The position numbers and the translations under genes were made by a program. A stretch of DNA of 31,586 bases from a virus (Duplodnaviria > Caudoviricetes): IMG/VR virus record IMGVR_UViG_3300014160_000011, positions 1-31,586 of that record; one strand, given 5' to 3'. Shown piece by piece: positions 60 to 18,162 of the stretch. Position 1 is the stretch's first letter, and every line of letters starts with the position of its first letter. The notes below the pieces were generated by a model that saw nothing but the letters and a program-made list of their open reading frames with translations, made no database searches and was not told the DNA's origin.

Positions 60-3000
60 ATGAAGCGATTCCTGTTACTGCTGGCGGCGCTCCCGCTGTT
101 CTCCGCGACCACCACGGTGACTCAATCCGTCGTTGGTCCGGACGGAAACCCGGCCGGCGGTCAGGCGCTCATCCGGATATCCGCGGCTTGCGGCTCCGGG
201 ACTTCGTACGTTGGCGAGCGGACCCTCGCGGTCACGTTCACCGCCGCGACGCCAGCTGGCCAGGCGAATAACTTCTCCGTCTCCCTGATCCCCAACGATG
301 CCGGCGGCTGCGCTGGGACCAGTTACTCCGTAAGCTGGACGATCACCAGTGGAAGGACCTGGAGCGAGACGTGGGTCGTGCCCACCAGCGCGACGCCGCT
401 GCTGGTGAGTTCCGTCGTGGTCACGAATCCCGTCCTGCCCACCTGGTTGGTGCAGTGGCAGCAGGTCGCGCAGAACGGCGCCACCATAGGCGAGTGCCCG
501 GTCTGGTCCGGCACGTCCTGGATACCCGCTCCTTGCGCCTCCGCGGCGACGATGATCTGGCCGACGGCGCCCGGCATCGCGGTCTATGGCGGCAGCAGCA
601 GCGCGTGGGGGACGTCCATCTCTCCCGGCACGAGTGACCAGTACATGCGGGGCGACTTCACACTGGCGTCCTTCCCGGCCTTCCAGACTCCGCTCACCGC
701 GTACGAGACGATCTCGGCGCTCAGCGGGTACCCATCCGCATTCCCGCCGATTACCTCCGGCGATTGGTCCGGAACCTGGCAGAGCTTCGCGCCGAGCCAT
801 TTTCAAGCGGCCATCTCCGGCGCGCCGGGAAGCTGGCCGGCGACCTGGGCTTGGGCTTCGCTGTCGGGCGTGCCGGCAACCTTCCCGCCGACGAACACGG
901 GCGATTGGGCGGGCACCTGGCAGTCGCATTCGCCCTCTTACTTCCAAACTCTCATCTCCGGCGCGCCCGGAACCTGGCCGACCACGTGGCCATGGGGTTC
1001 GCTCTCTGGCGTTCCCGCCCTCACCAATACGGTGTTCGGCCGCAGCGGGACAGTGGCGGCGACGTCGGGCGATTACAACACGGGCCAGGTCACCGAGGGT
1101 TCGAATCTCTATTTCACCAACGCGCGGGCGGTGGCCGCGCTGAACGGCCTGTACCAGACGCCGATTACGACTGGCACGACGGCGCAGTATCTGCGGGGCG
1201 ATCTAAGCCTGGCCACGTTTCCGACCAGTCTCTCCGCGTTCAGCAATGGCCCTGGCTATCTCACAGCCAACCAGTCGATCACCTTATCGAGTGACTGTTC
1301 GGGAACGGGCGCGACGTCCATCGCCGCGATCTGTACCAAGAGTAACGGCGTCGCCTTTGGCAGCGCGGCATTCCAAAACACCGCGGCTTTCCAAGCGCCG
1401 ATCTCCGGTGCGCCGGGCGCGTGGCCATCCTTTGGCGCATTGGCGCTCGCCGGCTATCCCGCCGCCGGCCTGGTGAAATCGACGGGATCCGCGTGGACGG
1501 CGGCCACCTACTCCGATGTCTCTGCGCTAGCCGGCTACCCTGCGACCTTCCCACCCACAACCTCTGGCGATTGGACCGGAACCTGGCAAACCTTCTCGCC
1601 CTCCTATTTCCAGACCGCCATCTCGGGGGCGCCGGGAACCTGGCCGACGCTGGGGACGGCATCGAGTCACGCCGCCACGGATTTTCAGGCGGCGCTCGCC
1701 AACTACTCGACCATCTCCGCTCTGACCGGTTACCCCGCGACCTTCCCGCCAACGACCTCCGGAAACTGGTCCGGGACGTGGCAGGGCAACGCGCCCGCCG
1801 CTTTCCAGACGGCGATCTCCGGCGCGCCCGGAACTTGGCCCACAACCTTTCCGCCGGTCACGAGCGGAAACTGGACGGGCACTTGGCAGGGCTACGCGCC
1901 GAGCGCCTTCGAACCGGCCCTCGGCAATCCAAGCGTTAGCGGATACCTGCTCTCCTCAACCGCGGCTGGAGTGCGGTCTTGGATTGCCGTCGGCGGCGCG
2001 ATGTCCTGGCCGGCAGGCTCGGGCATCCCCGTGGTGGTCAGCGGAGCATCGTGGGGGACCACAGTGGCCGCGCCGGCTGGCGCCATCGTCGGGACGACCG
2101 ACACCCAGGCGCTCACGAATAAGACCCTCGATGGCGTGACAGCCGCCACGATGGGGTATCTTGATGCGACGTCGAGCATCCAGACGCAGTTGAACGGGAA
2201 GCAAGCCACCATCGCAGCAGGGACCACCGCTCAATACCTGCGCGGCGACTTCTCGCTCGCGACGTTCCCCACCAGCCTCTCCGCTTTCACGAACGGGCCG
2301 GGCTACCTGACGGCCAACCAGACCATCACGGCCGGGAGCGATTGCTCGGGGTCCGGTACGACGTCGCTAGAGTTGATCTGCACCAAGAGCAACGGCGTGG
2401 CGTTCGGTACCGCCGCCTTCCAGAACACCTCCGCGTTCCAGGCTCCAATCGCGGGCGCGCCGGGAAGCTGGCCTTCGTTTGGGGCGCTCGCGCTCGCAGC
2501 ATACCCTTCGGCTGGCCTGGTCAAATCGAGCGGCTCGGCATGGACCGCGCCCGCGTATTCGGACGTCGCTGCGCTGACCGGCTACCCTACGAGCTTCACC
2601 CCATCGGCGCACGCGGCGACGCATGCGGCCGCGGGGTCGGACCCGCTCAGCCTGAGCGCGTCGCAGATCGGCAGCGGCTACCCGTATGCATCGCTGTCGG
2701 GCGCGCCCTCCATTCCAACCGCCTCGAGCGCGACGCCCGTCATGGATGGCGTCGGCGCTGCCGGATCTTCGGCTAACTTCGCGCGCGCCGATCACGTGCA
2801 CCCAAGCGACACAAGCAGGGAGCCGGCGCTTGGCAATCCATTGATCACCGGGTACTTGCTCTCTTCCACATCGGCTGGTGTGCGCTCCTGGGTTGTGCCG
2901 CCCGCAGCTATGGCGTATCCATCGGGGTCTGGCATCGCCATCGTGACTGCCGGCGCGTGGGGCACGACCGTGGCCGCGCCGGCAGGGGCCGTGGTGGGGA

Positions 3001-4667
3001 CCACCGACACGCAGACGCTTACCAACAAGACCCTGGATGGCGTGACGCCCACGATCATGGGGTATCTGGACGCCACGTCGTCGATTCAGACGCAGATCAA
3101 CGGCAAGCAGGCCTCTGGCAGCTATGTGACGGTTGGCGGCACGCTGGGCACGCCATCGAGCGGAACGCTAACGAACGCTACGGGGCTGCCGCTCTCCACG
3201 GGCGTGACGGGCACGCTCCCGCTCGCCGATGGCGGCTGCAACACATCGCTTGCTGCGACTGGCCCAGGCTTCCTGCAGCAAGCATCGAGCGGTGCTAACT
3301 GCACGGTGGCCGCTTTGACCTCCGGCCAGGTCACCACAGCGCTCGGACTAACGCCCTTCGCCAACCCCATGACGACGCTGGGGGACCTGCTCTACGGTGG
3401 CGCGTCGGGCGCCGCTACGCGATTGGGCGGCAACACGGCTGCCACGGACCAGGTCCTGGTAAGCCACGGGTCCGGCGCTGCGGCGGCCGCGCCCACGCTC
3501 AGCAACGCGCCCGCGTTGAGCATGGCGAGTATGACCGGGCTTACGGCCGCTCAGGTCCCGGCCGCGCTTTCATCCACCACGAGCGTCAACGGAACCACCG
3601 TCCCGTCCTCGTCCACGTTGCTGGTATCGGGCGGCGCGCTGGGCACGCCCTCCGGCGGCAGCATGGCCAACCTGACCGGTTTGACGGCCGCACAGGTTCC
3701 CGCCGCGCTCTCGGCGACCACCAGCGTCAACGGCACTTCGATTCCTTCTTCGTCCACGCTGATGACCACCGGCACCTCCCTGGTTGCCGGGCAGGAGCCA
3801 GCGCACACGGGCGATGTCACCAACACCGCCGGTTCGCTGGCGATGACGGTCGGGGCCATCGGCGGCAAGACGGTGTCGCTGGGCGGCAACCTGGCTGTTA
3901 CCGGCGCGTTCAATCCCACCTTCGCCATCCCGTCGTCGTCCACCTGGAGTTTCCCGAGCGGCGGCGGCACGCTGCTGGTGTCCGGCGGCGCACTCGGCAC
4001 CCCGTCCAGTGGATCGATGGCCAACCTCACCGGCTTAACTGCTGGCCAGGTTCCGGCCGCTCTAAGCTCGACCACCAGCGTGAACGGCACGAGCATTCCG
4101 TCCTCTGCCACGCTGCTCACCTCCGGCGGCGCGTTGGGCACGCCCTCGAGCGGATCCATGGCCAACCTGACGGGACTCACCGCCGCCCAGGTTCCGGCGG
4201 CGTTGAGCAGCACGACGAGCGTCAACGGCTCGTCCATCCCGGCATCGTCCACGCTCCTGGTGTCGGGCGGCGCGCTCGGTACGCCCTCGAGCGGCAGCAT
4301 GGCGAATCTCACCGGCCTCACCGCCGCGCAGATCCCCGCCGCGCTGCATATCGTGAACAGCGGATCTATCACCGGATTGACGGGCGCGGCGGGCTATATC
4401 ACCTGCACCAGCACCTGCTCGGTTCCGATTCCAGCGCCGGTGGTTGGATCGCAGTGGTGCGTGCGCAACGCGCCCGGCGCGTCGACCGTGATTACGCTGA
4501 ACGCGCTCGGCAGCGGGGATTACTACGAGTTGACGGCGCACACCGGCTGGGGCACCGCCAATCACACGCTGGCGTCGGGCGGCGCAATCGGCGATCAGAT
4601 CTGCCTGGTCGGATACGACACCGCCCATTACGAGGTGTTCAGCTCGAGCGGAACATGGACGGATTGA
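60..4667 (+). CDS. Large Gly/Ser/Thr/Ala-rich tail-fibre-like or adhesin-like repeat protein with N-terminal signal peptide (1535 aa)
   Basis: [17 protein letters not shown]-terminus; fibre-type motifs [68 protein letters not shown]; several internal repeat families. Confidence 0.75.
741..1910 (+). repeat. Five dispersed Trp-rich coding repeats FPPxxxG(D/N)WxGTWQxxxPxxF(QxxISGAPGxWP)
   Basis: Copies start at about 741, 882, 1548, 1743 and 1848. Confidence 0.85.
1170..3113 (+). repeat. Two interleaved block duplications inside the fibre-like gene (about 1170-1540 vs 2220-2590; about 1911-2206 vs 2820-3113)
   Basis: [10 protein letters not shown]...YSDVxALxGYP and EPALGNP...QTQxNGKQA each occur twice, with mainly synonymous divergence. 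Confidence 0.85.
3519..4347 (+). repeat. Five copies of a 141 bp (47 aa) coding repeat [47 protein letters not shown], arranged 2+3
   Basis: Met codons of the unit at 3522, 3663, 4017, 4158 and 4299 (141 bp period within each group); last copy partial. Confidence 0.9.
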
Positions 4668-4673
4668 AAACCC

Positions 4674-5285
4674 ATGAAAACGATCCTTGCAATTTTACTT
4701 CTGGCCGTCGCGGCGGCCGCGCAAAATAACGTGGTGTACACCTGGACCGTCCAGGCCAGCCCCACCGACACGCCGGCCAGCATGAACGTGACGCAGGACG
4801 CCGCCACCGCTGGCCCCAACGAGCTTTTCCAGACTCTTGGCGTTGCGGCGCCGACGACGGTGACCGCAGCAGAGACCGCTACGGCGACCACTTTGCCCTT
4901 GGCGAACATCACCGGCATCGTGCCGGGCAACGGCATCTGCATCGCGACGACAGTGGTCCCTTGCGCGATCACTATGTCCCCGAGCATGGTGCTCTCCCCC
5001 GGCGAGGTCGCCCTCGTCACTGCAGTAACTCCAGGGACGGCGCCGGCTGGCACTGTCACCGTGAAGAGAGGGGCCATCGGCACGGCGGCGGCGATCACTC
5101 TGAGCCAGCCGGTGTCGATCCTCCGGTCGGGCAGTTACAGCGAATACGCGGCCAACATCCTGCGCGACCATTACGCTTTGACGATTGCGAATCCCGCCTT
5201 TGGCTCGGCCTCAGCCATCGCTGCGGCGGTGGCCATCGCGGCCGCCCAGGCAGCGTTGAACGGCAACGCGGCGCTTCCTCACTAG
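4674..5285 (+). CDS. Hypothetical secreted protein (203 aa)
   Basis: MKTILAILLLAVAAAA-QN signal-peptide pattern; starts 6 nt after upstream stop. Confidence 0.8.
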   Translation: MKTILAILLLAVAAAAQNNVVYTWTVQASPTDTPASMNVTQDAATAGPNELFQTLGVAAPTTVTAAETATATTLPLANITGIVPGNGICIATTVVPCAITMSPSMVLSPGEVALVTAVTPGTAPAGTVTVKRGAIGTAAAITLSQPVSILRSGSYSEYAANILRDHYALTIANPAFGSASAIAAAVAIAAAQAALNGNAALPH

Positions 5286-5288
5286 AGC

Positions 5289-6050
5289 GTGAAACGTCTC
5301 TCGATCTGCGTCGCAATCTACCTGTTGATCGTGCTCTGCCCCGGCTCGCGGGTGGTGCATTCGCAACTGCTGAAGGGCATCGTCGGTGCTGGCGGGTGCG
5401 TCCATGGTTCGGTAACATATACTTCCCCGGGGACCGGCACTTGGAGCGTTCCGCCTGGCTGCACCGGGATAATCACTGTCGAAGCGTGGGGCGCTGGGGG
5501 CGGCGCTTCCAACACTTCGGGCGGTTATTCGAGCGGCGGCGGAGGCGGCGGGACTTACGCGAAGTCTTTGGAAACGATCCCGCCGGGAACGGTTCTTACC
5601 TACACCGTCGGCGCGGGCGGCAACTTTGCTTCTGACGACCCAGGCGCCAGTGGAGGAACGAGCGGCGTTACGGACACCATCAGCCCATACAGCGTCGCGG
5701 AGGCCTACGGAGGAACCGGCGCGTACGACAACTACGAAACCCCATGGGGAGGGACTTCCTCAACTCTAAATAACATTACCCGCGGGGGAGGAGTTACCTA
5801 CGTCGGGGGCGCGGGTGGAAACTCTTTCGGCGGGTTATACGGCGGCGGCGGGGGCGGCGGCGCAACTTCGTCTGGCGCGGGCACGGCTGGCGGCGATGAC
5901 GGCGGCGGGGGCGGCTCCTACGGGGGCGGCTCGGGAGGCACGGGCTTCTCGGCGGGCATCGCTCTATCCCCAGGCGGGGGCGCTGGCGGAAACAGCGCTA
6001 CCGGCACCGCCTATACCGCCGGCAACGGTCAGGTGCGAATCACCTGGTGA
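5289..6050 (+). CDS. Glycine-rich domain protein of the type found in tail fibres, with probable signal peptide (253 aa)
   Basis: TYTSPGTGTWSVPPGCTGIITVEAWGAGGG...GGGGGTYAK...YTVGAGG...GNGQVRITW pattern; GTG start 3 nt after upstream stop. Confidence 0.8.
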   Translation: MKRLSICVAIYLLIVLCPGSRVVHSQLLKGIVGAGGCVHGSVTYTSPGTGTWSVPPGCTGIITVEAWGAGGGASNTSGGYSSGGGGGGTYAKSLETIPPGTVLTYTVGAGGNFASDDPGASGGTSGVTDTISPYSVAEAYGGTGAYDNYETPWGGTSSTLNNITRGGGVTYVGGAGGNSFGGLYGGGGGGGATSSGAGTAGGDDGGGGGSYGGGSGGTGFSAGIALSPGGGAGGNSATGTAYTAGNGQVRITW

Positions 6051-6052
6051 CG

Positions 6053-6083
6053 AAAAAAGCCGCCAACCTCGCGGCTGGCGGCT
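6053..6083 (-). terminator. Rho-independent terminator closing the minus-strand gene array
   Basis: Minus strand reads AGCCGCCAGCC-GCGA-GGTTGGCGGCT-TTTTT: long stem, GNRA loop and U tract, about 22 nt after the stop at 6106. Confidence 0.85.
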
Positions 6084-6105
6084 CGGCAAATCCGATGCTC
6101 AATCC

Positions 6106-6753
6106 TTACTCGGTGGTGGTGCGGTACGCGTGCTCGCCGTTAGCGCGCTTGAAGGACTCGGTGGCGATGCCGGCCTTCTTGAGCGTGCCGGCGATGAATC
6201 CGCGGACCGTGTGCGGCTGCCAGCCCATGGCTTCCTGCAGCTCCGGGTTGCTCGCGCCGTTCTTCCGGCTGAGCATCTTGATCGCCTGCGCCTTCTTGGT
6301 GCCCTCGCGCGGAGCCTTCGGCTCGGCGGCGGGTTCGGCGGCCTTGGCCGGCTTGGCGGCTGCGGCCGCCTTGGGGGCCTTCTTGCCGGCGGTGGCCTTG
6401 GTGGTCGGCTCCGGCTCGGCGGGCGCGTCAAACGGCGTCTCTGGCGCGGGGGTGGCCTCCGTGGCGGCTGCGCCGTTGGTGGGAGCCAGCGTCTGGATCG
6501 CGGCCCAGATGCGCGCGGTGGCCTTGGCGCGGTTTTCAAACTTCTTGACCGGCTTGAGCTTGTCGAAGCCAGGCGTGCCGGCGAGATCGTTCCAGATATC
6601 TACGAAGCGGCTGATGGGCCACTCCGCGGTGACCTTGCCAAACTCCTTCTCGCTGGCGAAGGCCTGCGCGCCGGCGCCAATGGAAGCTTCGGCGTGGTCC
6701 GGGGTCGGGAAAGCTGCGATTGCGTTGTCGGTGTTGATCGTAAAAGTCGTCAT
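6106..6753 (-). CDS. DUF3489 domain-containing protein (215 aa)
   Basis: C-terminal PREGTKKAQAIKMLSRKNGAS..EL..AMGWQPHTVRGFIAG motif; Ala/Lys/Pro linker; AAGGAG RBS; this family is commonly found antisense near phage methylase/terminase genes. Confidence 0.88.
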   Translation of the reverse strand: MTTFTINTDNAIAAFPTPDHAEASIGAGAQAFASEKEFGKVTAEWPISRFVDIWNDLAGTPGFDKLKPVKKFENRAKATARIWAAIQTLAPTNGAAATEATPAPETPFDAPAEPEPTTKATAGKKAPKAAAAAKPAKAAEPAAEPKAPREGTKKAQAIKMLSRKNGASNPELQEAMGWQPHTVRGFIAGTLKKAGIATESFKRANGEHAYRTTTE

Positions 6754-6778
6754 TGTCGTTGCTCCTTGTTCGAGTAAT

Positions 6779-7078
6779 CTACTTGCGGCGGCCGTCGATG
6801 GCCACCGGGATCTTCAGAAATCGTCCATCTACTCCGCGCGCCCATACTACGAAGCGGTCGCGCGGCATCATGCCCTGGCCGGTGCGGTGCATCCGGTCGG
6901 CAGCCAGTTCCTGCGCCTCGTTGACGCTGCACACGCCGCCGATGGGTTCGTATCCGCCGGCCTGCAATTCCAGGATCAGCATCCCGTCGCCCCGGAGGTC
7001 GGTGTCTGGTCCGATCTCGATTGCGAATCCGTGCCAGGCTTTCCAGGCGTTCTTCTTGGTGCTCTTGGTGGCTGCCAT
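6779..7078 (-). CDS. Hypothetical protein (99 aa), paralog of 7235..7594
   Basis: Start reassigned to ATG at 7078 behind TAAGGAGA RBS of repeat A1. Confidence 0.8.
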   Translation of the reverse strand: MAATKSTKKNAWKAWHGFAIEIGPDTDLRGDGMLILELQAGGYEPIGGVCSVNEAQELAADRMHRTGQGMMPRDRFVVWARGVDGRFLKIPVAIDGRRK

Positions 7079-7084
7079 GCTTGT

Positions 7085-7176
7085 TCTCCTTACGTCACCA
7101 TTCATCACTCCGCTGGCGGAGACGATCAAGCGGAATCTGCGCCGGTCGCGAAGATAAACCCGATGAAAAGGCGATG
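7085..7176 (-). promoter_or_regulatory. Repeat A copy 1: putative promoter/operator plus RBS module
   Basis: CATCGCCTTTTCATCGGGTTTATCTT...TTG-N21-ATGAATGGTGACGTAAGGAGA-N6-ATG; one of four copies with identical spacing. Confidence 0.8.
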
Positions 7177-7220
7177 CTCCTTCACGTCCGCAAGCCCGCC
7201 GATACCGGGCGGGCGCGGGC
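7177..7220 (-). repeat. Repeat B copy 1: GC hairpin plus GAAGGAG RBS, not followed by a gene
   Basis: + strand CTCCTTCACGTCCGCAAGCCCGCC-GATACCG-GGCGGGCGCGGGC; directly abuts repeat A1. Confidence 0.85.
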
Positions 7221-7234
7221 GGGAGTGCGGGCGG

Positions 7235-7594
7235 CTAGACGTCGATGGCGGGAATGGCGGCGGCGATGCGGTACTCCCCGCCGAGTCCTTGGGCCCAGAC
7301 CTTGTATTCGTAGGGGCAGAACGGCGCGCCGCCATGTTCCAGGTCGTCGCGCCGGCGGCGCATATCGCCGGCAGCGATCTCGCGCGCCTCGTTGATGCTG
7401 CCGACCACCCCTACGGGTTCGGTGTGGCCTTCTTCATCCTCCGCGATCAGCATCGCGAGTCCGAGTGGCGTGTCCCGCCTGATCGCAATCGCGAAGCCAG
7501 GCGTCGCGACGCACGCGGTCAACCCATGAAAGGGCTGGCCGCAGTTGGAGCACCGGTAGTCAGCCGGCTTGGCGTTGCGGCTGCGGCGGGCCAT
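7235..7594 (-). CDS. Hypothetical protein with N-terminal CxxC (119 aa)
   Basis: YRCSNCGQ motif; TAGATG coupling to upstream gene; similar to 6779..7078. Confidence 0.85.
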   Translation of the reverse strand: MARRSRNAKPADYRCSNCGQPFHGLTACVATPGFAIAIRRDTPLGLAMLIAEDEEGHTEPVGVVGSINEAREIAAGDMRRRRDDLEHGGAPFCPYEYKVWAQGLGGEYRIAAAIPAIDV

Positions 7595-7957
7595 CTACTT
7601 GACCCCCGTGGTGCGCGCGCGGAGAATCGCGCCGTCGTTGAGTTTCAATCCTTCGGCGGTCCTGGCTTGCCGCAGGCCATCGAGCCAGGTTCCGACTCCA
7701 AACGACTCGTGCGCCAAGGCGACCGCCTCGGCGCGCGGCAGTTCGCGACGCTCTCCCTGCCGGTCCCAGTAGAACGCCAGCGGCTCCACCTTTTTCCGCA
7801 GGCGCGCCGCGCCGCGGATTCGGACCTCGTGGTTGGTGGCGGTGTTGATGGCGTTCCAACCGCCGTGCTGGCTCTCGTTGATGATCCGGACAGTGGTCAG
7901 CTTGCCGCTTACCTTGGCCACGTACGTCCCGCCGATCTCGATTTCCGCCTTGCGCAT
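7595..7957 (-). CDS. Hypothetical protein, small beta-rich N-terminal domain (120 aa)
   Basis: EIEIGGTYVAKVSGKLTTVRI...HGGWNAINTATNHEVRIRGAARLR resembles a recurring prophage small-protein motif; GGAGG RBS. Confidence 0.85.
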   Translation of the reverse strand: MRKAEIEIGGTYVAKVSGKLTTVRIINESQHGGWNAINTATNHEVRIRGAARLRKKVEPLAFYWDRQGERRELPRAEAVALAHESFGVGTWLDGLRQARTAEGLKLNDGAILRARTTGVK

Positions 7958-8365
7958 CTACTTGACCTCCGGAGTCTCTGGCGCCGGCGCCAGGACGTCG
8001 ACCTTGGTCCGCGCGACCAGCATCTCGCGGATGGCGCTGTCGGCGCGGTCGAGCGAGCTGGAGATGTTGGCGTTGGCCCAGGCCATGTCGTGGCGGATGT
8101 GGTAGAGCACTTGCTCGAGCGTGTTGGTCTCGCGCTGGGCCTCGCGCTCGATCTCGTCGAGCATGCTGTGGAGTCGCGCCAGCGCCTCGTCGATGGCCTC
8201 CCTGGCGTCCCTGGCTTTGTAGTCGCGAATGTAGGTGGCGATCTCGATCTCCCTGGCGCGCTTCTCGCTTTCGGTGGGCGGCGTCTTGGCGGCCTGGGCG
8301 TCGGCGCGCGCGGCCGCGAAGCCTTCATCGGCTGGCGTTGTCTGGTTGCGTTTGGCTCGTTGCAT
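7958..8365 (-). CDS. Hypothetical helical/coiled-coil protein (135 aa)
   Basis: ATG behind the GAAGGAG RBS of repeat B2; charged helical composition. Confidence 0.8.
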   Translation of the reverse strand: MQRAKRNQTTPADEGFAAARADAQAAKTPPTESEKRAREIEIATYIRDYKARDAREAIDEALARLHSMLDEIEREAQRETNTLEQVLYHIRHDMAWANANISSSLDRADSAIREMLVARTKVDVLAPAPETPEVK

Positions 8366-8370
8366 CGTGT

Positions 8371-8414
8371 CTCCTTCACGTCCGCAAGCCCGCCAGTTTC
8401 GGGCGGGCGCGGGC
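8371..8414 (-). repeat. Repeat B copy 2: GC hairpin plus RBS
   Basis: Identical to B1 except the loop (AGTTTCG vs GATACCG). Confidence 0.85.
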
Positions 8415-8431
8415 GGTGCGGGCCGGCTGGT

Positions 8432-8674
8432 CTACCTGGCGTCGGCGACTCTTCGGGTATTGCGCGCTACGTTGGCGTTGACCGTGGCCCAGGCCGCTTC
8501 CGCGCCGGCTTTGTAAGCAGCTTCGAGGGCGGCCTTAATCCGCCAAACCGCCAGGTCGTGGAAGTCGAGTTCGTCGGAGGATCTAGTCTCCATGGTCTCG
8601 ATGTACAGGCTGTCCTTGGCGATCTTCGCCAGCGTGGCGTCCATCCTCTTGGCGGCTTGTTTTGTGCTCTGCAT
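8432..8674 (-). CDS. DUF6900-like small protein (80 aa)
   Basis: LAKIAKDSLYIETMETRSSDELDFHDLAVWRIKAALEAAYKAG matches the IETLETRNSDxLDFHDVxVWxxxxALEAAY family pattern; start set at ATG behind repeat A2 RBS. Confidence 0.8.
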   Translation of the reverse strand: MQSTKQAAKRMDATLAKIAKDSLYIETMETRSSDELDFHDLAVWRIKAALEAAYKAGAEAAWATVNANVARNTRRVADAR

Positions 8675-8680
8675 CGTCCG

Positions 8681-8772
8681 TCTCCTTACATGACCATTCA
8701 TCACTCCGCTTACGAACACGAGCAAGAGAAAAGTGCATCGCTGGCGAAAATAAACCCGATGAAAAGGCGATG
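8681..8772 (-). promoter_or_regulatory. Repeat A copy 2
   Basis: CATCGCCTTTTCATCGGGTTTATTTT...TTG-N21-ATGAATGGTCATGTAAGGAGA-N6-ATG. Confidence 0.8.
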
Positions 8773-8776
8773 GCGC

Positions 8777-8998
8777 CTACTTGGTTGGACCGAGCCAGAT
8801 CTCGCCCACGCGCCAATCAATGCTCGCCGGCAGTTCGGTGAGACGGGAGAAAGCGGCGGCGTATTCCGCGGTCCGGCCGCTCCAGTTGGGATCGGCGAGG
8901 TTGGCGACGCGGATGCGGTCGCCCACCACGGTGGCGGCGTAATCGTTGCTGCGCCTGTCAATGGCGGCGGCCAAACTCTGCAGCTTGCTGGTGGTCAT
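8777..8998 (-). CDS. Hypothetical protein (73 aa)
   Basis: Fills the gap between neighbouring array genes; starts 12 nt after upstream stop. Confidence 0.7.
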   Translation of the reverse strand: MTTSKLQSLAAAIDRRSNDYAATVVGDRIRVANLADPNWSGRTAEYAAAFSRLTELPASIDWRVGEIWLGPTK

Positions 8999-9010
8999 TG
9001 TCTCGCTTTC

Positions 9011-9244
9011 CTACATCGTGTCCAGAAGGCGCATGGCATCCATGAGAGAGGTGCAATCAATAGAGCCGCTCCAATTTGCGCCGTCGACCCACCAGTCGCG
9101 GCTGGTTCCGCCCGCGTGTTTGCCCCCCTCGATCTGGTATTCGACGCCGTGTCGAGTCGCTACCCATCGACTCTTGGAAACGCGGCGCAGCGCCTCTACG
9201 TGATCGAAGAATCTCAGACGCCCGTTTACCTTAATCATCGCCAC
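9011..9244 (-). CDS. Hypothetical protein (77 aa)
   Basis: GTG start behind the RBS of repeat B3; protein-like composition. Confidence 0.78.
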   Translation of the reverse strand: MAMIKVNGRLRFFDHVEALRRVSKSRWVATRHGVEYQIEGGKHAGGTSRDWWVDGANWSGSIDCTSLMDAMRLLDTM

Positions 9245-9252
9245 CTGACTAT

Positions 9253-9297
9253 CTCCTTCACGCCGGCAAGCCCGCCGATACCGGGCGGGCTGCGGGC
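9253..9297 (-). repeat. Repeat B copy 3: GC hairpin plus RBS
   Basis: + strand CTCCTTCACGCCGGCAAGCCCGCC-GATACCG-GGCGGGCTGCGGGC. Confidence 0.85.
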
Positions 9298-9313
9298 GAG
9301 CGCCTCCGGCGTC

Positions 9314-9631
9314 TCAGCCGACCTGCACGATGCGCTTGCTGACCAGGTCGTACCAGCCGTGCCGGCGCGTGACTCCCTTCGATCCGAGGCAGTCGAAGTC
9401 GAAGTATCGCGTCTGCTCGACCGGAGGCTCGCTCTCCACGAAGTAGGGCAGCACCAAGCTATAGCTGTCGCCGAGGTAGCAGCTCCCGTAGACCGCATCG
9501 CACTTGGCGCAGCGGTAGACCTGGGTGAATCCCTGGACCGGGGTGGCGAGGCGATGGCTGCAGGCGGGGCAGCCGGCTCCTTCGGGCCGGCGCGTGCGTC
9601 TCTCGGTGCGTTGTTCGTTCGCGGTGGGCAT
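9314..9631 (-). CDS. Zinc-ribbon-like small protein (105 aa)
   Basis: CPAC...YRCAKC pair; TAGATG coupling with GGAG RBS. Confidence 0.82.
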   Translation of the reverse strand: MPTANEQRTERRTRRPEGAGCPACSHRLATPVQGFTQVYRCAKCDAVYGSCYLGDSYSLVLPYFVESEPPVEQTRYFDFDCLGSKGVTRRHGWYDLVSKRIVQVG

Positions 9632-9832
9632 CTACTTGATCTCCTTTTCGTTGACGCTCGAGGGAGGGGCTGCTACGAGGCCGGCGTGCTGGATGATGGC
9701 GGTCTTCAATACGCCGTATGGCGCGGCCACGAAGCTGAAGGGGCGTTTTCCGTTCTCCAGGAAGAGTCTAGCCGCCTCGGCGTAAGTAATCGGCGCCAGA
9801 TTCGTGGTCTCCGGGGTGTATCTGCTCTGCAT
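9632..9832 (-). CDS. Hypothetical protein (66 aa)
   Basis: Start set at ATG 9832 behind repeat A3 RBS. Confidence 0.72.
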   Translation of the reverse strand: MQSRYTPETTNLAPITYAEAARLFLENGKRPFSFVAAPYGVLKTAIIQHAGLVAAPPSSVNEKEIK

Positions 9833-9838
9833 CGTCGT

Positions 9839-9931
9839 TCTCCTTACGTCACCATTCATCACTCTGCTTACGACCCCCAGCAAGGGGAATCTGCATCGCC
9901 GGCAAAGATAAACCCGATGGTGTGGCGAATG
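9839..9931 (-). promoter_or_regulatory. Repeat A copy 3 (diverged distal box)
   Basis: CATTCGCCACACCATCGGGTTTATCTT...TTG-N21-ATGAATGGTGACGTAAGGAGA-N6-ATG. Confidence 0.8.
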
Positions 9932-9934
9932 CGC

Positions 9935-10186
9935 CTATGCCGGGCGCGTGAGATCGCAGACGATGAAAGGATTGCATTCGCGGATGCAGAGGCAGTAACG
10001 GTCGTAATCGTGCCGAAACTCGGCGGGACGCGTCGCCGGCAGCAGCGTGTCCTTGGTGTCGGCCCAGACCTCGCGGATGAACCCGTAGGCCTGATCGGCG
10101 CTCACGAATTCTCCGAATGCATCCCAGGTCGCGATGGCGGCTTCTCTGGCGGCTTGGTCAATGGCGCTTCTGGTGGCGGCGTTCAT
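9935..10186 (-). CDS. Hypothetical protein (83 aa)
   Basis: TAAGGAG RBS overlapping the upstream stop. Confidence 0.75.
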   Translation of the reverse strand: MNAATRSAIDQAAREAAIATWDAFGEFVSADQAYGFIREVWADTKDTLLPATRPAEFRHDYDRYCLCIRECNPFIVCDLTRPA

Positions 10187-10196
10187 GGCGTGCTCC

Positions 10197-10403
10197 TTAG
10201 CGGGGAACCGATACGATGGTCACTCCGTAGCGGCCTGTTACAATGCCGTACCCAACCGCGTGGTTGCCGGCTGGCAAATCAAACCAGCGCCCGTTCTTGG
10301 CGAGCGTGCCGCCCATCTGTTCGGACAGGCGCGCGAGTTTCCGGATTGCGCTTTGCATCGTCGCTTCGTTCGCTTTCTGCTGGCTGGTTCGTTTGGCCGC
10401 CAT
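10197..10403 (-). CDS. Hypothetical basic protein (68 aa), first gene of the array
   Basis: Start set at ATG 10403 behind repeat A4 RBS. Confidence 0.72.
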   Translation of the reverse strand: MAAKRTSQQKANEATMQSAIRKLARLSEQMGGTLAKNGRWFDLPAGNHAVGYGIVTGRYGVTIVSVPR

Positions 10404-10409
10404 CGTCGT

Positions 10410-10501
10410 TCTCCTTACATGACCATTCATTGATTACAACGCCGCCGAAGGCAAGTCTAATCGCGCGCCGGCCGCAAAATAAACCCGATGAAAAGGCGAT
10501 G
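10410..10501 (-). promoter_or_regulatory. Repeat A copy 4, divergent from the methyltransferase gene
   Basis: CATCGCCTTTTCATCGGGTTTATTTT...TTG-N21-ATGAATGGTCATGTAAGGAGA-N6-ATG. Confidence 0.8.
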
Positions 10502-10518
10502 ACGCCGGGAGGCCTCGC

Positions 10519-11550
10519 GTGGACCTGAGCTATGGCGTGGCCTGCTGCGACTGCCGCGACGCCGGAGCCGTGGCGCGCCTGCTCGACGGGCGCAAGGTCA
10601 ACCTGGCGATTACGTCCCCGCCGTACGCCAGCCAGCGGGCATACGACGAGACCAGCGGCTTCCGGCCAATCCGCCCGGAGGATTATGTCGCCTGGTACAA
10701 GGACGTCGCGGCGGTCGTCGAGCAGATCCTGGCGCCCGATGGCTCCTACCTTCTGAACATCAAGGAGCACGCCGACGAGGGCGAGCGCAGCCTGTACGTC
10801 AAGGACCTGGTGCTCGCGCATAAGCGCCAATGGGGCTGGCGATTCGTGGACGAGTTCTGCTGGCGCAAGACGAGCGATGGCGTGCCGGGCGGCTGGGGAA
10901 ACCGCTTCAAGAATGCGTGGGAGCCAGTCTTCCACTTCTGCCGCCAGCCGGAGATCAAGTTCCGGCCGCACGCGGTCGGTCACATCTCCCAGGATTGTTT
11001 CGACTACTCGCCGGACAATCCGAAGTCGACCTCGGGCAGCGGGCTGCTGGGCACCGGACCGCGGGGCGCGGCCGCCGACCGTGGCAAGAACGGCGAGGCC
11101 TGGCAGCGCAGCCGCCGAAACCTCAGTAAGAGCAGAACCACTGCCGGCCAGCCATCGGAGGGCGGCGGGGACTGGGGACACATGCGCCGCAAGCTCATGG
11201 AGGGCCGCTTCGAGGGCGTGGCGCGGCCGAGCAACGTGATCGAGACTATCGCGGAGACCACCCAGGGATCGCACGCCGCGCCGTTCCCGCGCGCGCTGGT
11301 GGAGTTCTTCATCAAGGCTTTCACCGAGCCTGGGGACGTGGTCTTCGATCCGTTCCTGGGGTCGGGCACCACCATGGCGTCGGCCTTCGCGCTGGGCCGG
11401 TCCGCATTCGGATGCGAGATCTCGCCGGCATACTGCGACGTGATCGTGCGGCGCGTCGAGAACCTTTCGAGCCAGGCCTTCCGGCTGGCCGGCGATGGCA
11501 GGACCTTCGGCCAGGTCGCGGAGACGCGGGGAGTGGCGGTGGCGGCATGA
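10519..11550 (+). CDS. Site-specific DNA methyltransferase (N4-C/N6-A, beta-class motif order)
   Basis: Catalytic TSPPY before SAM-binding DPFLGSGTT; HAAPFP and GCEISPAYCDVIVRR motifs; GGAGG RBS before GTG. Confidence 0.93.
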   Translation: MDLSYGVACCDCRDAGAVARLLDGRKVNLAITSPPYASQRAYDETSGFRPIRPEDYVAWYKDVAAVVEQILAPDGSYLLNIKEHADEGERSLYVKDLVLAHKRQWGWRFVDEFCWRKTSDGVPGGWGNRFKNAWEPVFHFCRQPEIKFRPHAVGHISQDCFDYSPDNPKSTSGSGLLGTGPRGAAADRGKNGEAWQRSRRNLSKSRTTAGQPSEGGGDWGHMRRKLMEGRFEGVARPSNVIETIAETTQGSHAAPFPRALVEFFIKAFTEPGDVVFDPFLGSGTTMASAFALGRSAFGCEISPAYCDVIVRRVENLSSQAFRLAGDGRTFGQVAETRGVAVAA

Positions 11551-12092
11551 TCCTGACCACGAAGCAACTGGCGGACGAGCTGGGCATCAGCGTAAGCCGC
11601 ATCAACGAGATGGGCCGGGAGGGCAAGATCCCCCGCGAAGCCAATGGGCGGTGGGACCTGGCGAAAGTGCGCGCATCCGTCGAGGGCAATCTGGACACGC
11701 ACAAGGCCAGCCCGGCGCGCGGCGATCCGCCGCCGGCATCGCGCGGCATGGGCCCCGGCATGGGCGCAGCGCAGTTTACGCAGCAGCCGCGGCCTCCGGA
11801 ACGGGGCACGATGGCCTATGCGCAGTTGCAACACGAACTGGCGAAGGCCACCAAGGCGGCGCTCGAGGCGCAGCGCATGGAGGGGAAGCTGATCGACCGG
11901 CAGCTGGTCCAGGCGGAGTGGACCGGCATCGCCGCGAGCATTCGCAGCGCAGTCCTGGCGATCCCGATGCGAGTCCTGAACCGGCTGCCGGCGGAAGACC
12001 GCCGCCGCGTGCTGCCGGTTATCGAAGAAGAGTGCCGCGCCGCGCTGAGCGCCTTGAGCGATGAGATCCGCAACGATTCAAAGGCTGCATGA
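11547..12092 (+). CDS. terS: Terminase small subunit (Nu1-like, N-terminal HTH; 181 aa)
   Basis: ATGA overlap with the methylase stop; TKQLADELGISVSRINEM HTH; C-terminal helical region (EGKLIDRQLV); immediately before large terminase. Confidence 0.8.
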   Translation: MILTTKQLADELGISVSRINEMGREGKIPREANGRWDLAKVRASVEGNLDTHKASPARGDPPPASRGMGPGMGAAQFTQQPRPPERGTMAYAQLQHELAKATKAALEAQRMEGKLIDRQLVQAEWTGIAASIRSAVLAIPMRVLNRLPAEDRRRVLPVIEEECRAALSALSDEIRNDSKAA

Positions 12093-14028
12093 TGACGTCG
12101 CAGACGTGCTCGTTCCTCCTCCGGCGCTGTTGCTCTCGGATTGGGCGCGGCAGCACTTCACCCTAAGCTCAGATTACTCGGGGACCACCGGAAAGTTCCA
12201 ACCGTATCCGTACCAGATCGAGCCGCTCAACGTTCTTAGCCCCTCGCACCCTTGCGAAACGATGTGCCTCATGTGCGCAGCGCAGATGACAAAGACGATT
12301 CTACTGATGATCCTGTTGGCGTACGTCATCGACGCCGAGCCAGGTCCGGTGCTGATCGTCCAGCCGAATGAGCAGGACGCCAAGACGTTCTCCGCCGAGC
12401 GCGTGGGGCCCATGCTGCGCGACGTGCCGTGCCTCCAGGGAAAGGTCCACGAAGCCAAGTCGCGGGACGCCGGCAACACGATCCTGCAGAAGCGCTTTGC
12501 AGGAGGCAGCGTGGCGCTCACTGGCGCCGTTTCGCCGCGCGGCCTGCGCCGCCGGTCGGTGCGGTACCTGCTGCTCGACGAAATCGACGGGTACGAAGAG
12601 ACGAGCGACGGCGACCCGATCGCGCTCGCGGCCGCCCGCACCAGCAAGTTCTGGAACCGCAAGATCATCAAATGCTCGACGCCCACGGTCGAGGGCCACA
12701 GCCGCATCGCCGCGGCGTTCGAACTTTCCGACCAGCGCGTCTACTTCGTGCCCTGCCCGCTATGCGGCGAGTTCCAGACGCTCGAGTGGGGTAACGTCCG
12801 CTGGGGCGACGTGGACGGCCAGCACATACCGCCTGAGCAAGCGGTCTACCGCTGCGCCGGCTGCGAGGGGCTGATCCCGCACCACCGCAAGCTCGACATG
12901 CTGCGGGCCGGCGAGTGGCGGTCCACCAATCCCAATGGCAAGTATCCCGGCTTCCGGATCTCGCGGCTGTATTCCCCGGACTGGTCCTGGGGCCAAGTCG
13001 TCACGGATCCGGACGAAGGATGGCTCGCGGCGCAAGGCAAGCCGGAGCGGCTCAAGGTCTTCGCCAACAACATGCTGTCGGAAACCTGGCGCGAAGCCGG
13101 CGAGTCCCCGCCCGATTATGAGAAGCTTATGGCGCGCACTGAGGAATACTACCTCGGCCAGGCGCCCGCTGGCGCGCTGTTCCTGACAGCCGGCGTGGAC
13201 GTCCAGAAGACCTGGATTGAGGGGTACGTATGGGGCTGGGGCCGCCAGCGCAACCGTTGGGTGGTCGATTGGTTCCGCATCGAGCAGTCGCCCTTCGAAG
13301 CCGCCGCATGGGAGGCGCTGGAGGAGAGGCTGCTGAAGGTTTACCGCCACCCGAAGGGCGCGGACCTTCCCATTGTGCGGATGTGCATCGACTCGGGCTT
13401 CGCCGGCAACGAGGTGTACGCCTTCGCGCGCCGGCACCGGGCGGGCGGCCGCGTGATGGCTGTCGACGGCAGGTCGAGCGGCAGGGCCATTGTCGATCCT
13501 CCGAGCCTGGTCGACCTGACCATCGGCGGGCGCAAGATCAAGCGGGGCTGCAAGCTGTGGCCGGTGAACGTGTCGATGTGCAAGGAGGAACTCTATTCGC
13601 AGCTCAACCGCGAGCGACCGGCGGCAGACAAGCCGTGGCCACCCGGGTGGGTGCACTTCGCCGCGGACCTGCCGGACGAGTTTTATCGCCAGCTCACATC
13701 GGAAGAACGCCGCTTGTCGATTCGCAGAGGCGGCGTCCGCAAGATGCAGTGGGAAGGCATCGAGAACCGCCGGCATGAAAGCCTGGACTGCGCCAACTAT
13801 GCGCGCGCCGGCGCATTCTCCGTGGGCATCGACCGGTTCGAGGAGGAGCACTGGGCGCACTTCGAATCCATGCTCAACATCAAGACCACCGCGGCAGCGC
13901 CGCCGACGCCGGCAGCGGCCGCGCCGCCTCCCGAACCACAGCAGCCCCAGGCGGCAGCAGAGCAGCCGCGCCCGCAGCAGCAACCGCATTACATAGGGCG
14001 GTTTGACGTCACGAACTGGTTGAGGTAA
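12061..14028 (+). CDS. terL: Terminase large subunit, lambda GpA family
   Basis: PYQ motif, AQMTKT Walker A variant, LLLDEID Walker B, STPT, VPCPLCG...YRCAGC, TAGVDVQ, CIDSG, HESLDCANYA. Confidence 0.96.
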   Translation: MRSATIQRLHDDVADVLVPPPALLLSDWARQHFTLSSDYSGTTGKFQPYPYQIEPLNVLSPSHPCETMCLMCAAQMTKTILLMILLAYVIDAEPGPVLIVQPNEQDAKTFSAERVGPMLRDVPCLQGKVHEAKSRDAGNTILQKRFAGGSVALTGAVSPRGLRRRSVRYLLLDEIDGYEETSDGDPIALAAARTSKFWNRKIIKCSTPTVEGHSRIAAAFELSDQRVYFVPCPLCGEFQTLEWGNVRWGDVDGQHIPPEQAVYRCAGCEGLIPHHRKLDMLRAGEWRSTNPNGKYPGFRISRLYSPDWSWGQVVTDPDEGWLAAQGKPERLKVFANNMLSETWREAGESPPDYEKLMARTEEYYLGQAPAGALFLTAGVDVQKTWIEGYVWGWGRQRNRWVVDWFRIEQSPFEAAAWEALEERLLKVYRHPKGADLPIVRMCIDSGFAGNEVYAFARRHRAGGRVMAVDGRSSGRAIVDPPSLVDLTIGGRKIKRGCKLWPVNVSMCKEELYSQLNRERPAADKPWPPGWVHFAADLPDEFYRQLTSEERRLSIRRGGVRKMQWEGIENRRHESLDCANYARAGAFSVGIDRFEEEHWAHFESMLNIKTTAAAPPTPAAAAPPPEPQQPQAAAEQPRPQQQPHYIGRFDVTNWLR

Positions 14029-16471: not shown

Positions 16472-17110
16472 ATGGAACCGATGAACGTGGACACTACGGG
16501 CGCCGGAGGCACTCCGCCCATCGCAACGGTAATCATTCAGACGACGACCAGCGCCACCGCAGGCGCGGCGCCGCCCGCGGCGAGTCCGCCCCGCACCGAA
16601 GTGTTCGCGTCCGCGGCCGACGATGAAATCTCGTTCGTCCCACAGACGCTCGATGCCAAGGCGCGCACCGTCGACGTGGTCTGGTACGGCGGCATGACCG
16701 TGCCCAGGGTCGATCAGGACACCGGCGACCCCTACATGCTGCGCCTCAACATGGCCGGCTGCCGCATGGAGCGCCTGAACGCGGGCGCGCCCTTCTTCGA
16801 CTGCCACATGAGCGGTCTCGATTTTAAATCTTACATGGCCAACCAGGCGGGCGCGAAGGCGCAGCGGGGATCGGTCGTGAAGGCGTGGGCCGATGGCGCA
16901 AAAGGCATGGCCACCGTGCAATTCGGAGTCGAGGGAGAGAACGCAGATACCGATCAACTCTGGTCCGGCATCGCATCGGGCCGGGTTCGCAATCTCTCTT
17001 TCGGAACATACGTGTACAGCAAGAAACCGGTAACCGACGTCCAGGGAAACGGCACCATGGCTCCCCACCCGAGCGGAAGCCAGGCGCCAGTATTCGAAGC
17101 CACAGATTGA
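16472..17110 (+). CDS. Prohead protease domain, apparently C-terminally truncated
   Basis: RTVDVVWYGG, RLNAGAPFFDCH, GSVVKAW, GRVRNLSFG motifs; ends at VFEATD before the expected WEPxExSxV strand. Confidence 0.8.
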   Translation: MEPMNVDTTGAGGTPPIATVIIQTTTSATAGAAPPAASPPRTEVFASAADDEISFVPQTLDAKARTVDVVWYGGMTVPRVDQDTGDPYMLRLNMAGCRMERLNAGAPFFDCHMSGLDFKSYMANQAGAKAQRGSVVKAWADGAKGMATVQFGVEGENADTDQLWSGIASGRVRNLSFGTYVYSKKPVTDVQGNGTMAPHPSGSQAPVFEATD

Positions 17111-18162
17111 TGGCTTTCGAGTTCACCGGATTGTCGCTCATCGAAATGGGCAGGGTGTTCCTCGAGTCGCGCGGCGTGAAGACCACCGGCTGGAACAAGA
17201 TGCGTCTCGCCGACGAACTCTTCCGGCGCGCCACGCCCCGTTCGAACTTCGAATTGTTCGAAGGCGGCGGCGCGGAGTCGACGAGCGACTTCCCGGCGAT
17301 TCTGGCGAACGTCGCGAACAAGACGCTGCGGCAGTCCTACCAGGCTTATCCGCAGACCTTCAAGCCGTTCTGCCGGCCCGTGACCGCGCCCGATTTCAAG
17401 CCGATCAACCGCGTGCAGCTCTCCGACGCTCCGGCGCTCGCGAAGCTCAATGAGAAGGGCGAGTACCACCACGCGAAATTGACCGACTCGAACATCAACT
17501 ATTCGCTCGGAACCTATGGCGAGATCGTCGCGCTCACCCGCAAGACGATCATCAACGACGATCTGAGTGCGTTCACCCGCATTCCCGGCCAACTCGGCGT
17601 GGCGGCCGCACGCCTGGAGTCCGACACCGTGTGGGGCATCATCACGTCGAATCCCATCGCGCAATACGCGGGGGATCCGGCTGCCGGCGTCGCGCTGTTT
17701 GCCGCCGCTCACAAGAACTACGCCGCGGGCGCGGCCCTGGCCATTGCCACGCTGGGTACGGGACGCACGAACTTCCGGCTGCAGACCGCTCCCCAGGGAA
17801 CCCCGTTAAACCTCCTGCCCCGGTACATCGTGCTGCCGGCGGCGCTTGAAACCACCGCTCTGCAGTTGATCTACCCGATGAACCTGGCGGTGACCGCCGC
17901 GACGGCGGGGATTCCGGAATGGGTCCGCAGCTTGATTCCGATCACCGAACCGCGTCTCGATGCCAACAGCCAGACCGGTTGGTACCTGATCGCCGACCCC
18001 GCGGACATCGACACCATTGAGTACTGCTACCTCGAGGGGCAGGAAGGCGTCTATTTCGAGACCCGCCAGGGCTTCGAGGTGGACGGCATGGAGATGAAGG
18101 CCCGCATGGACTTCGCCGCGGCGGCGATTGAATATCGCGGCATGGCCAAATACACCGCGTAG
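17110..18162 (+). CDS. Major capsid protein (Mu gpT-like domain usually fused to the protease; 350 aa from ATG 17110)
   Basis: STSDFPAILANVANKTL, DFK, NEKGEY, TYGEIVALTRKTIINDDL, EPRLD, TIEYCYLEGQEG, EYRG motifs; TGATG overlap with the protease stop. Confidence 0.92.
   Translation: MAFEFTGLSLIEMGRVFLESRGVKTTGWNKMRLADELFRRATPRSNFELFEGGGAESTSDFPAILANVANKTLRQSYQAYPQTFKPFCRPVTAPDFKPINRVQLSDAPALAKLNEKGEYHHAKLTDSNINYSLGTYGEIVALTRKTIINDDLSAFTRIPGQLGVAAARLESDTVWGIITSNPIAQYAGDPAAGVALFAAAHKNYAAGAALAIATLGTGRTNFRLQTAPQGTPLNLLPRYIVLPAALETTALQLIYPMNLAVTAATAGIPEWVRSLIPITEPRLDANSQTGWYLIADPADIDTIEYCYLEGQEGVYFETRQGFEVDGMEMKARMDFAAAAIEYRGMAKYTA

Follow-up and report, generated by a model that had tools for sequence, protein, structure and literature searches.

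Why does one + strand reading frame stay open across thousands of nucleotides (nt) of genes that face the other way? The question is raised by the phage contig IMGVR_UViG_3300014160_000011 (Duplodnaviria; Caudoviricetes), whose full length of 31,586 nt is the window analysed here. The window is phage DNA of 65.5% GC, and its + strand carries a methylase gene, terS, a GpA terminase gene, a lambda-type portal gene, and capsid and tail genes. Between the + strand gene 5289..6050 and the methylase gene (10519..11550) lies a cassette of twelve small minus-strand genes, including those of the DUF3489 and DUF6900 families. An open reading frame (ORF) of 1493 codons, the bridge ORF, runs antisense to the entire cassette. 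Its GTG start at 6047 overlaps the TGA of the upstream gene (6048-6050; -4 overlap), and its own TGA (10526-10528) lies 10 nt inside the methylase gene (-10 overlap). The bridge ORF is probably a selected translation bridge, indifferent to its peptide, that carries ribosomes along the late transcript across the 4.5-kb cassette.

The + frame is stop-free from position 5900 and measures 1542 codons from stop to stop. It crosses the twelve genes, their spacers, the cassette terminator and four promoter-like repeats; the next-longest shadow ORF in the window is 584 amino acids (aa). Ten consecutive cassette genes are codon-aligned with the frame (stops and starts at the lower and upper coordinates, respectively, of the in-register genes in Table 1), and the nine gaps between them (156, 0, 0, 66, 102, 12, 69, 0 and 102 nt) are all multiples of three. 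TTA, CTA and TCA are absent from the 957 codons of these ten genes and from the 1240 codons of all twelve. The two outer genes, the DUF3489 gene and the first cassette gene, are off register, with gaps of 25 and 10 nt, and are crossed in offset frames. The initial annotation had reported the overlapping GTG and TGA, the TGA inside the methylase gene, the codon alignment of ten genes with 3n-nt gaps, the 584-aa runner-up, the absence of the three codons from the ten genes and a terminator at 6053-6083 with a U tract on the minus strand only. All of these were reproduced from recomputed coordinates, the terminator being placed at 6057-6084. Its caveat on copied gaps also holds: since the spacers are built from four copies of repeat A, three copies of repeat B and three TCAAGTAGATG junctions, only about six phases are independent.

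The length of the frame alone is not decisive for selection, because shadow ORFs reach 1086 codons over the late genes of relatives, a point that counts against selection. Of 138 shadows of at least 400 codons, only one covers three genes. When the cassette codons were resampled synonymously with fixed phases, the ten aligned genes all stayed open with a probability of 0.013-0.063 and all twelve genes with a probability of 2-6e-4. The corresponding probabilities are 1.8e-3 for all ten spacers and 0.03-0.09 for the first cassette gene in its offset frame; the offset frame that crosses the DUF3489 gene is open in 19 of 166 homologues. In 3000 simulations with randomised phases, the longest + frame had a median of 477 and a maximum of 1152 codons, compared with the 1542 observed, so that the codon-usage simulation proposed in the initial annotation did not yield ORFs of the observed length. 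The frame is more than a GC shadow. Chance and inheritance could otherwise be invoked to explain it, through the rarity of TTA, CTA and TCA at 65% GC, copied 102- and 66-nt spacers, TAG-ATG junctions and a very large scan. The probability for the ten aligned genes, the 1086-codon shadows and the derivation of the spacers from two repeats (the usual repeat B gap across relatives is 66-67 nt) fit this explanation, as does the unbridged state of most relatives. It leaves unexplained why the two outer genes are crossed by open offset frames and why both ends overlap the flanking genes.

Relatives were gathered with queries that are independent of the antisense frame: terminase, DUF3489, patterns of the repeats and a further family of cassette genes. 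For gene calling we used a simple dicodon caller of our own, which missed two window genes and misplaced some starts; frames depend on stops only. In the bridge tests, the upstream gene of the window was set manually. The loci share ancestry, and the p-values below are too small. Single-ORF bridges with strict start overlap occur in 8 of 88 Acidobacteriota loci, against 0.08 expected (window, L035, L304, L303, L273, L275, L308 and L302). A wider start window gives 9 of 88 by adding L004 (0.16 expected), relays raise the number to 12-13 (0.8-1.5 expected), and restriction to strong upstream genes leaves 8 of 72 loci bridged (0.10 expected). The bridges are 316-1493 codons long, their spans match one another only partly (at 65-88%), and they lead into four kinds of downstream gene. 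L304 is bridged over genes in frames 1, 0 and 1, and phase-locking is therefore not required. The earlier proposal that new cassettes are tolerated only in phase finds no support in this locus or in the two outer genes of the window, all of which are bridged out of phase.

A frame-specific depletion of stops accompanies the complete bridges. The frame f1 begins one base after the downstream + strand start and terminates either at that start, via ATGA or TGATG, or a few codons past it. In the 125 loci left after thinning, frames open for at least 1200 nt numbered 17 in f1, none in f0 and one in f2. Stops in the divergent spacers were distributed over f0/f1/f2 as 135/41/91 (n=102), 91/33/71 (n=69) and 64/23/57 (n=46, p=4e-5), compared with 122/115/107 in 185 tandem spacers that served as a control. 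Among triplets seen more than 15 times, TAG had the lowest f1 share, TAA the second lowest and TGA the fourth. The f0/f1/f2 counts were 49/14/33 upstream of terS-like genes and 13/2/7 upstream of helix-turn-helix (HTH)-like genes. Removal of 20 long-open loci left 63/32/55 (n=55, p=0.006). A Pseudomonadota set, in which 82 loci yielded 45 anchored cassettes, 12 non-redundant spacers and 11 loci with both flanks, gave 26/10/23 (n=12, p=0.025).

The cassette genes exhibit a matching codon signal. TTA, CTA and TCA account for 17 of 1719 Leu and Ser codons in f1-aligned genes versus 69 of 2670 in other genes (p=1.3e-4; window and L004 excluded), and the difference persists without the long-open loci (p=0.013). 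Other A-ending codons are used equally (0.080 vs 0.079), and the GC content of third codon positions is equal. The signal emerges only relative to the frame of the downstream gene. By these counts, stops in that one frame are probably selected against in the relatives. The suggestion in the initial annotation that selection keeps the + frame open and tied to its flanking genes is supported by the eight bridges, by the f1 stop depletion and by the two closest relatives described below. A depletion tied to the downstream gene, together with eight bridges in dissimilar cassettes, is not accounted for by chance and inheritance, which we regard as unlikely.

The closest kin of the window, L004 and L021, are phase-locked and open like the window. 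In L004, the cassette (gaps of 13, 12, 0 and 99 nt) lies between a methylase gene and a head-tail adaptor gene and is crossed by a 711-codon + strand ORF. This ORF starts at an ATG that is led by a Shine-Dalgarno (SD) sequence and overlaps the stop of the methylase gene, and its TGA lies 10 nt inside the adaptor gene. L004 and the window share 1562 aligned bases at 77.5%. The + frame of L021 is open for at least 618 codons. Phase-locked homologous arrays with an open + frame, as the initial annotation would expect, are seen in these two loci but not in most relatives, which show mixed phases and stops in all three frames; phase-locking is not a rule. Across relatives, cassette gaps of 6-200 nt are in phase at 88 of 175 junctions (40 of 82 when strictly thinned) versus 75 of 245 for + strand genes, a difference inflated by ancestry. 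Of the loci with at least four cassette genes, the window has the most called genes in a row in a single frame, nine. Another locus, L254 (4913-6584), has a methylase of the type found in the window's clade, in-phase gaps of 13, 15 and 102 nt and a GTGA overlap at the methylase; its two stops on the DUF3489 side make it a broken or internally started bridge. The genomes G346 and G349 each contain six or seven copies of cassette-family genes, several of them in methylase-cassette-HTH elements.

The bridge ORF shows what would be expected of a functional overlapping protein in its length, its start codon and the maintenance of an open frame. It has no match in Pfam, PHROGs, NCBIfam, the Atlas or a search among shorter proteins; homologues of similar or greater length were not searched for. 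The third positions of the cassette codons are the first positions of the bridge codons. At matched protein identity, four-fold sites diverge in bridged and unbridged genes by 0.27 vs 0.29, 0.32 vs 0.37 and 0.53 vs 0.41, and 35% of 159 such sites differ between the window and L004. Pooled antisense identity (0.66) is below sense identity (0.79), and purifying selection on the antisense peptide was not detected. A strain variant provided a weak test, with strain contigs that span the cassette only in pieces: the 40 of 70 substitutions examined touch 32 codons, change 28 bridge residues and introduce no stop. Bridge lengths of 316-1493 codons over differing cargo also argue against a protein. 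A functional product, with neither a family or homologue match nor a constrained peptide, was rejected and is very improbable; by these comparisons, the bridge frame is not a protein gene.

The register might instead serve the minus strand, with TAG read-through or recoding that fuses the ten genes into polyproteins. TAG ends nine of the ten aligned genes, the spacers between them contain no in-frame stop, TAG and ATG abut at gap-0 junctions, and across relatives the cassette genes favour TAG (268 of 616 stops vs 166 of 1089 for + strand genes). Homologues end at the equivalent places with TAA or TGA, however. Each gene is preceded by its own ribosome-binding site (RBS), TAG also terminates late genes of the window, no tRNA gene was found in the window, and the + strand signals would be left unexplained. 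TAG recoding was rejected on the alignment of TAG with TAA and TGA ends and the absence of a tRNA gene from the window, and we consider it extremely improbable.

For the translation bridge, the following mechanism is proposed. Ribosomes that end the upstream gene 5289..6050, the putative donor, would reinitiate at the overlapping GTG. They would then translate through the cassette, its terminator and the four promoter-like repeats, stop 10 nt into the methylase gene near its start and be handed to the methylase, terS and terL genes, the methylase gene acting as the presumed acceptor. RNA polymerase trailed by these ribosomes would escape Rho and prevail in head-on encounters with cassette transcription. 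Since a codon-aligned antisense frame need only avoid TTA, CTA and TCA, spacers of 3n nt would be favoured, and phase-locking may be a cheap, non-obligatory way to keep the frame open. We infer that late transcription passes through the cassette and that ribosomes translate the transcript across the whole insert; what the phage would gain is most likely polymerase processivity combined with ribosome hand-over. A gene for Rho is present in five of five host-group genomes tested. A C-rich (rut-like, C>G) skew was not found on the + strand (C/G 0.78-1.11), which counts against the proposal and makes the Rho step its least supported part.

A narrower explanation is that the frame is translated just to deliver ribosomes to the downstream start, with the packaging genes switched on solely by the long late transcript and with Rho and collisions uninvolved. 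The lack of C-rich skew agrees with it, as does the position of the depleted frame, which terminates at the downstream start or shortly past it and remains depleted near that start in unbridged loci. ATGA or GTGA is found at the upstream stop in six of seven fully open loci (25 of 72 overall), and in L274 and L062 the relay is a 7-codon ORF with an ATGA on either side. A short SD-led ORF would nevertheless be cheaper than 1493 codons, and the window methylase has a GGAGG of its own and a -10 overlap in place of the common -4, -1 or -8; this overlap also counts against the wider proposal. Coupling of this kind as the whole explanation is improbable. As a separate observation, L306 (6122) and L308 are close copies in one genome that differ in one spacer base; the L308 bridge ends in ATGA, and its L306 counterpart runs in-frame into the downstream gene.

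Several results weigh against a selected translation bridge. Between 75 and 80 of the 88 Acidobacteriota loci lack a full bridge; under the loosest relay rule 71 of 88 are still unbridged, with 5.9 successes expected by chance, and none of 11 Pseudomonadota loci is fully bridged. Phases are mixed in the long cassettes of L011, L282, L285 and L133, where every frame is interrupted by stops, as it is in the DUF3489 cassettes of the cultured phage AcaML1 and of a Ralstonia phage record. Given the relatives with long mixed-phase cassettes, late expression does not generally need a bridge. Spacers upstream of adaptor genes show the opposite trend (f0/f1/f2, 9/6/1), and no stop depletion is seen in the terminator-side spacer (41/46/41). 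Nor is there depletion in the offset frames of first genes, and TTA, CTA and TCA pooled by phase regardless of the downstream frame are equally frequent in phase (0.0032) and out of phase (0.0033). Only 11 of 98 short open f1 stretches contain an SD-led start, and a conserved internal start for short open frames was looked for and not found. The shared ancestry of the loci adds to these points.

Parts of the proposal have counterparts in published reports. In Escherichia coli, a synthetic interfering ORF that traverses a convergent gene in antisense as far as the promoter of that gene strengthened transcriptional interference (10.1101/2020.09.23.310730). As is proposed for the window, it couples polymerase to ribosomes on an antisense ORF, but it is an engineered two-gene construct without a downstream coupled gene, whereas the window is natural, multi-gene and apparently under selection. 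Noncontiguous operons are described in Staphylococcus aureus, with ith-1/tha-1 of phage 80alpha as an example (PMC11087260). There, antisense genes with promoters of their own are nested in a co-directional run of a temperate phage; such nesting is found in the window, with repeat A copies as putative promoters, and its architecture, judged from gene arrangement, is that of a noncontiguous operon. Mutual exclusion by transcription, as in those operons, is plausible by analogy. The available part of that report describes no frame kept across the antisense gene of 80alpha, unlike the one coupled ORF over twelve genes in the window (PMC11087260).

Stop avoidance in a reverse frame without a homologous product is also described for Culex narnavirus 1, whose reverse ORF lacks homologues and is experimentally required; its authors suggest that translation itself matters (PMC8316113). 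The narnavirus is a eukaryotic RNA virus with one ORF opposite one gene, that of the RNA-dependent RNA polymerase (RdRp), whereas the window, known from its sequence, has twelve genes and their spacers under an ORF that, unlike the narnaviral one, overlaps flanking genes at both ends. Membership among ambigrammatic narnaviruses was rejected for the window, which carries the gene set of a double-stranded DNA phage (terminase, portal and capsid; Pfam, PHROGs). Termination-reinitiation needs overlaps or very short distances, with -4, -1 and -8 as common overlaps (PMC10666635). The 5' end of the bridge ORF, a -4 overlap through GTGA, fits such pairs, as do the ATGA, GTGA and TGATG overlaps at both ends in several relatives, with -4 or -1 overlaps at each end in L275, L302, L304, L308 and L273; the window differs in its 3' overlap of -10 and in an upstream partner that is a spacer ORF without a conserved product. 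DUF3489/DUF6900 cassettes beside methylase and terminase genes are found in lambda-like temperate phages (AcaML1 gp27-32), with the same families, position and orientation, but the AcaML1 cassette lacks a full bridge. The literature searched, which lacked most subscription papers, contained no account of a phage ORF that bridges antisense genes in this coupled way, and DUF3489 came up there in a single paper.

It is evenly poised whether phage translation bridges are a class of element in their own right, with coupling at each end, by which an operon can take in antisense cargo and which doubles as a switch. In the switch version, the ribosome-trailed late transcript would silence the cassette promoters. 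The bridge would constrain the codon choice of the cargo and hold spacer lengths to multiples of three. If the proposal is true, reading frames in DNA phages are selected for translation alone, which was found in print only for narnaviruses and the synthetic construct, and uptake of backward-facing accessory genes follows a rule of spacer length modulo three and three avoided codons. Long shadow ORFs that annotation discards would become worth testing. Transcription of an operon through kilobases of antisense genes in a Rho-containing host would be directly testable, since a single substitution, synonymous in the cassette genes, would break the bridge. The window is an extreme case: a single frame spans twelve genes and 4.5 kb.

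Table 1. Features of the cassette and its flanks in the window.
Feature	Position	Strand	Basis
Upstream gene, glycine-rich tail-fibre-like protein	5289..6050	+	Pfam Gly_rich_2 above cut-off; PHROG tail matches
Bridge ORF, 1493 codons, GTG to TGA	6047..10528	+	no protein family or homologue match
Intrinsic terminator-like hairpin ending the cassette	6053..6084 (elsewhere 6057-6084)	-	U tract on minus strand only; minus-strand z -3.8
DUF3489 gene, off register, crossed in offset frame	6106..6753	-	PF11994
Cassette gene, 99 aa, in register; paralogue of 7235..7594	6779..7078	-	
Repeat A copy, promoter- and RBS-like (putative function, from sequence)	7079..7176	-	
Repeat B copy, GC hairpin then GAAGGAG	7177..7232	-	
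Cassette gene, 119 aa, in register	7235..7594	-	
Cassette gene, 120 aa, in register; TAG-ATG abutment	7595..7957	-	
Cassette gene, 135 aa, in register	7958..8365	-	
Repeat B copy, 66-nt spacer	8364..8429	-	
DUF6900 gene, in register	8432..8674	-	PF21841
Repeat A copy, 102-nt spacer	8675..8776	-	
Cassette gene, 73 aa, in register; no homologue among loci compared	8777..8998	-	
Cassette gene, 77 aa, in register; no homologue among loci compared; missed by dicodon caller	9011..9244	-	
Repeat B copy, 69-nt spacer	9246..9311	-	
Cassette gene, 105 aa, zinc-ribbon-like (weak match), in register; sole TGA stop of the ten	9314..9631	-	
Cassette gene, 66 aa, in register; no homologue among loci compared	9632..9832	-	
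Repeat A copy, 102-nt spacer	9833..9934	-	
Cassette gene, 83 aa, in register	9935..10186	-	
First cassette gene, 68 aa, off register, crossed in offset frame	10197..10403	-	
Divergent spacer	10404..10518	.	fourth repeat A (10404-10505); no stop in bridge frame, three in each of the two other frames
N6/N4 DNA methyltransferase	10519..11550	+	PF01555; GTG start 10519; own GGAGG 7 nt upstream
Terminase small subunit	11547..12092	+	phrog_57; ATGA overlap with methylase stop
GpA-type terminase large subunit	12061..14028	+	PF05876, PF20454; phrog_15

The four copies of repeat A share a conserved motif before the RBS and ATG, which was not among the matches of a sigma-70 consensus scan. A weak + strand terminator-like match at 9594-9611 folds no better than shuffled sequences. 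Repeats A and B recur with different cargo in L011, L133, L120 and other loci, suggesting exchange of cassettes via recombination between repeats. One strain contig (depth 5) joins 9920 to 9254 with 11 letters between them, from the end of a repeat A to the start of a repeat B, and the register is kept.

Since the nearest DUF3489 relatives are in genomes titled Bryobacteraceae or other Acidobacteriota, we infer a soil bacterium of that group as the host; in a search of Planctomycetota, DUF3489 was found in 1 of 301 genomes. Rfam gave no match. Two large Thr/Ser/Pro-rich ORFs (60..4667 and 4674..5285), with signal-peptide-like N-termini and no family match, lie between the cassette and an upstream methylase gene that is seen in L123. 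A circular contig was rejected, as L123 extends upstream into the end of this methylase gene and a LuxR-like gene rather than into the window's end. The protease and major capsid parts of phrog_4523 are encoded by two ORFs (16472..17110 and 17110..18162) with a TGATG overlap. L002 is near-identical to the window across the cassette and terminase, but over 15105-16222 of the window, in the 3' part of the portal gene, it differs by roughly 35 mismatches and 15 gap positions. In L275, L302, L303, L306, L035 and L274, a conserved small ORF (CRREIA...GHPDxQGLCLALxDWSAEL) directly follows the methylase TGA in the same frame. Its first codon is ATC or ATT in these six loci, and an ATG is located one base further on in L252, L088 and L128; the ORF may have a non-AUG start, depend on TGA read-through or be a decaying gene.

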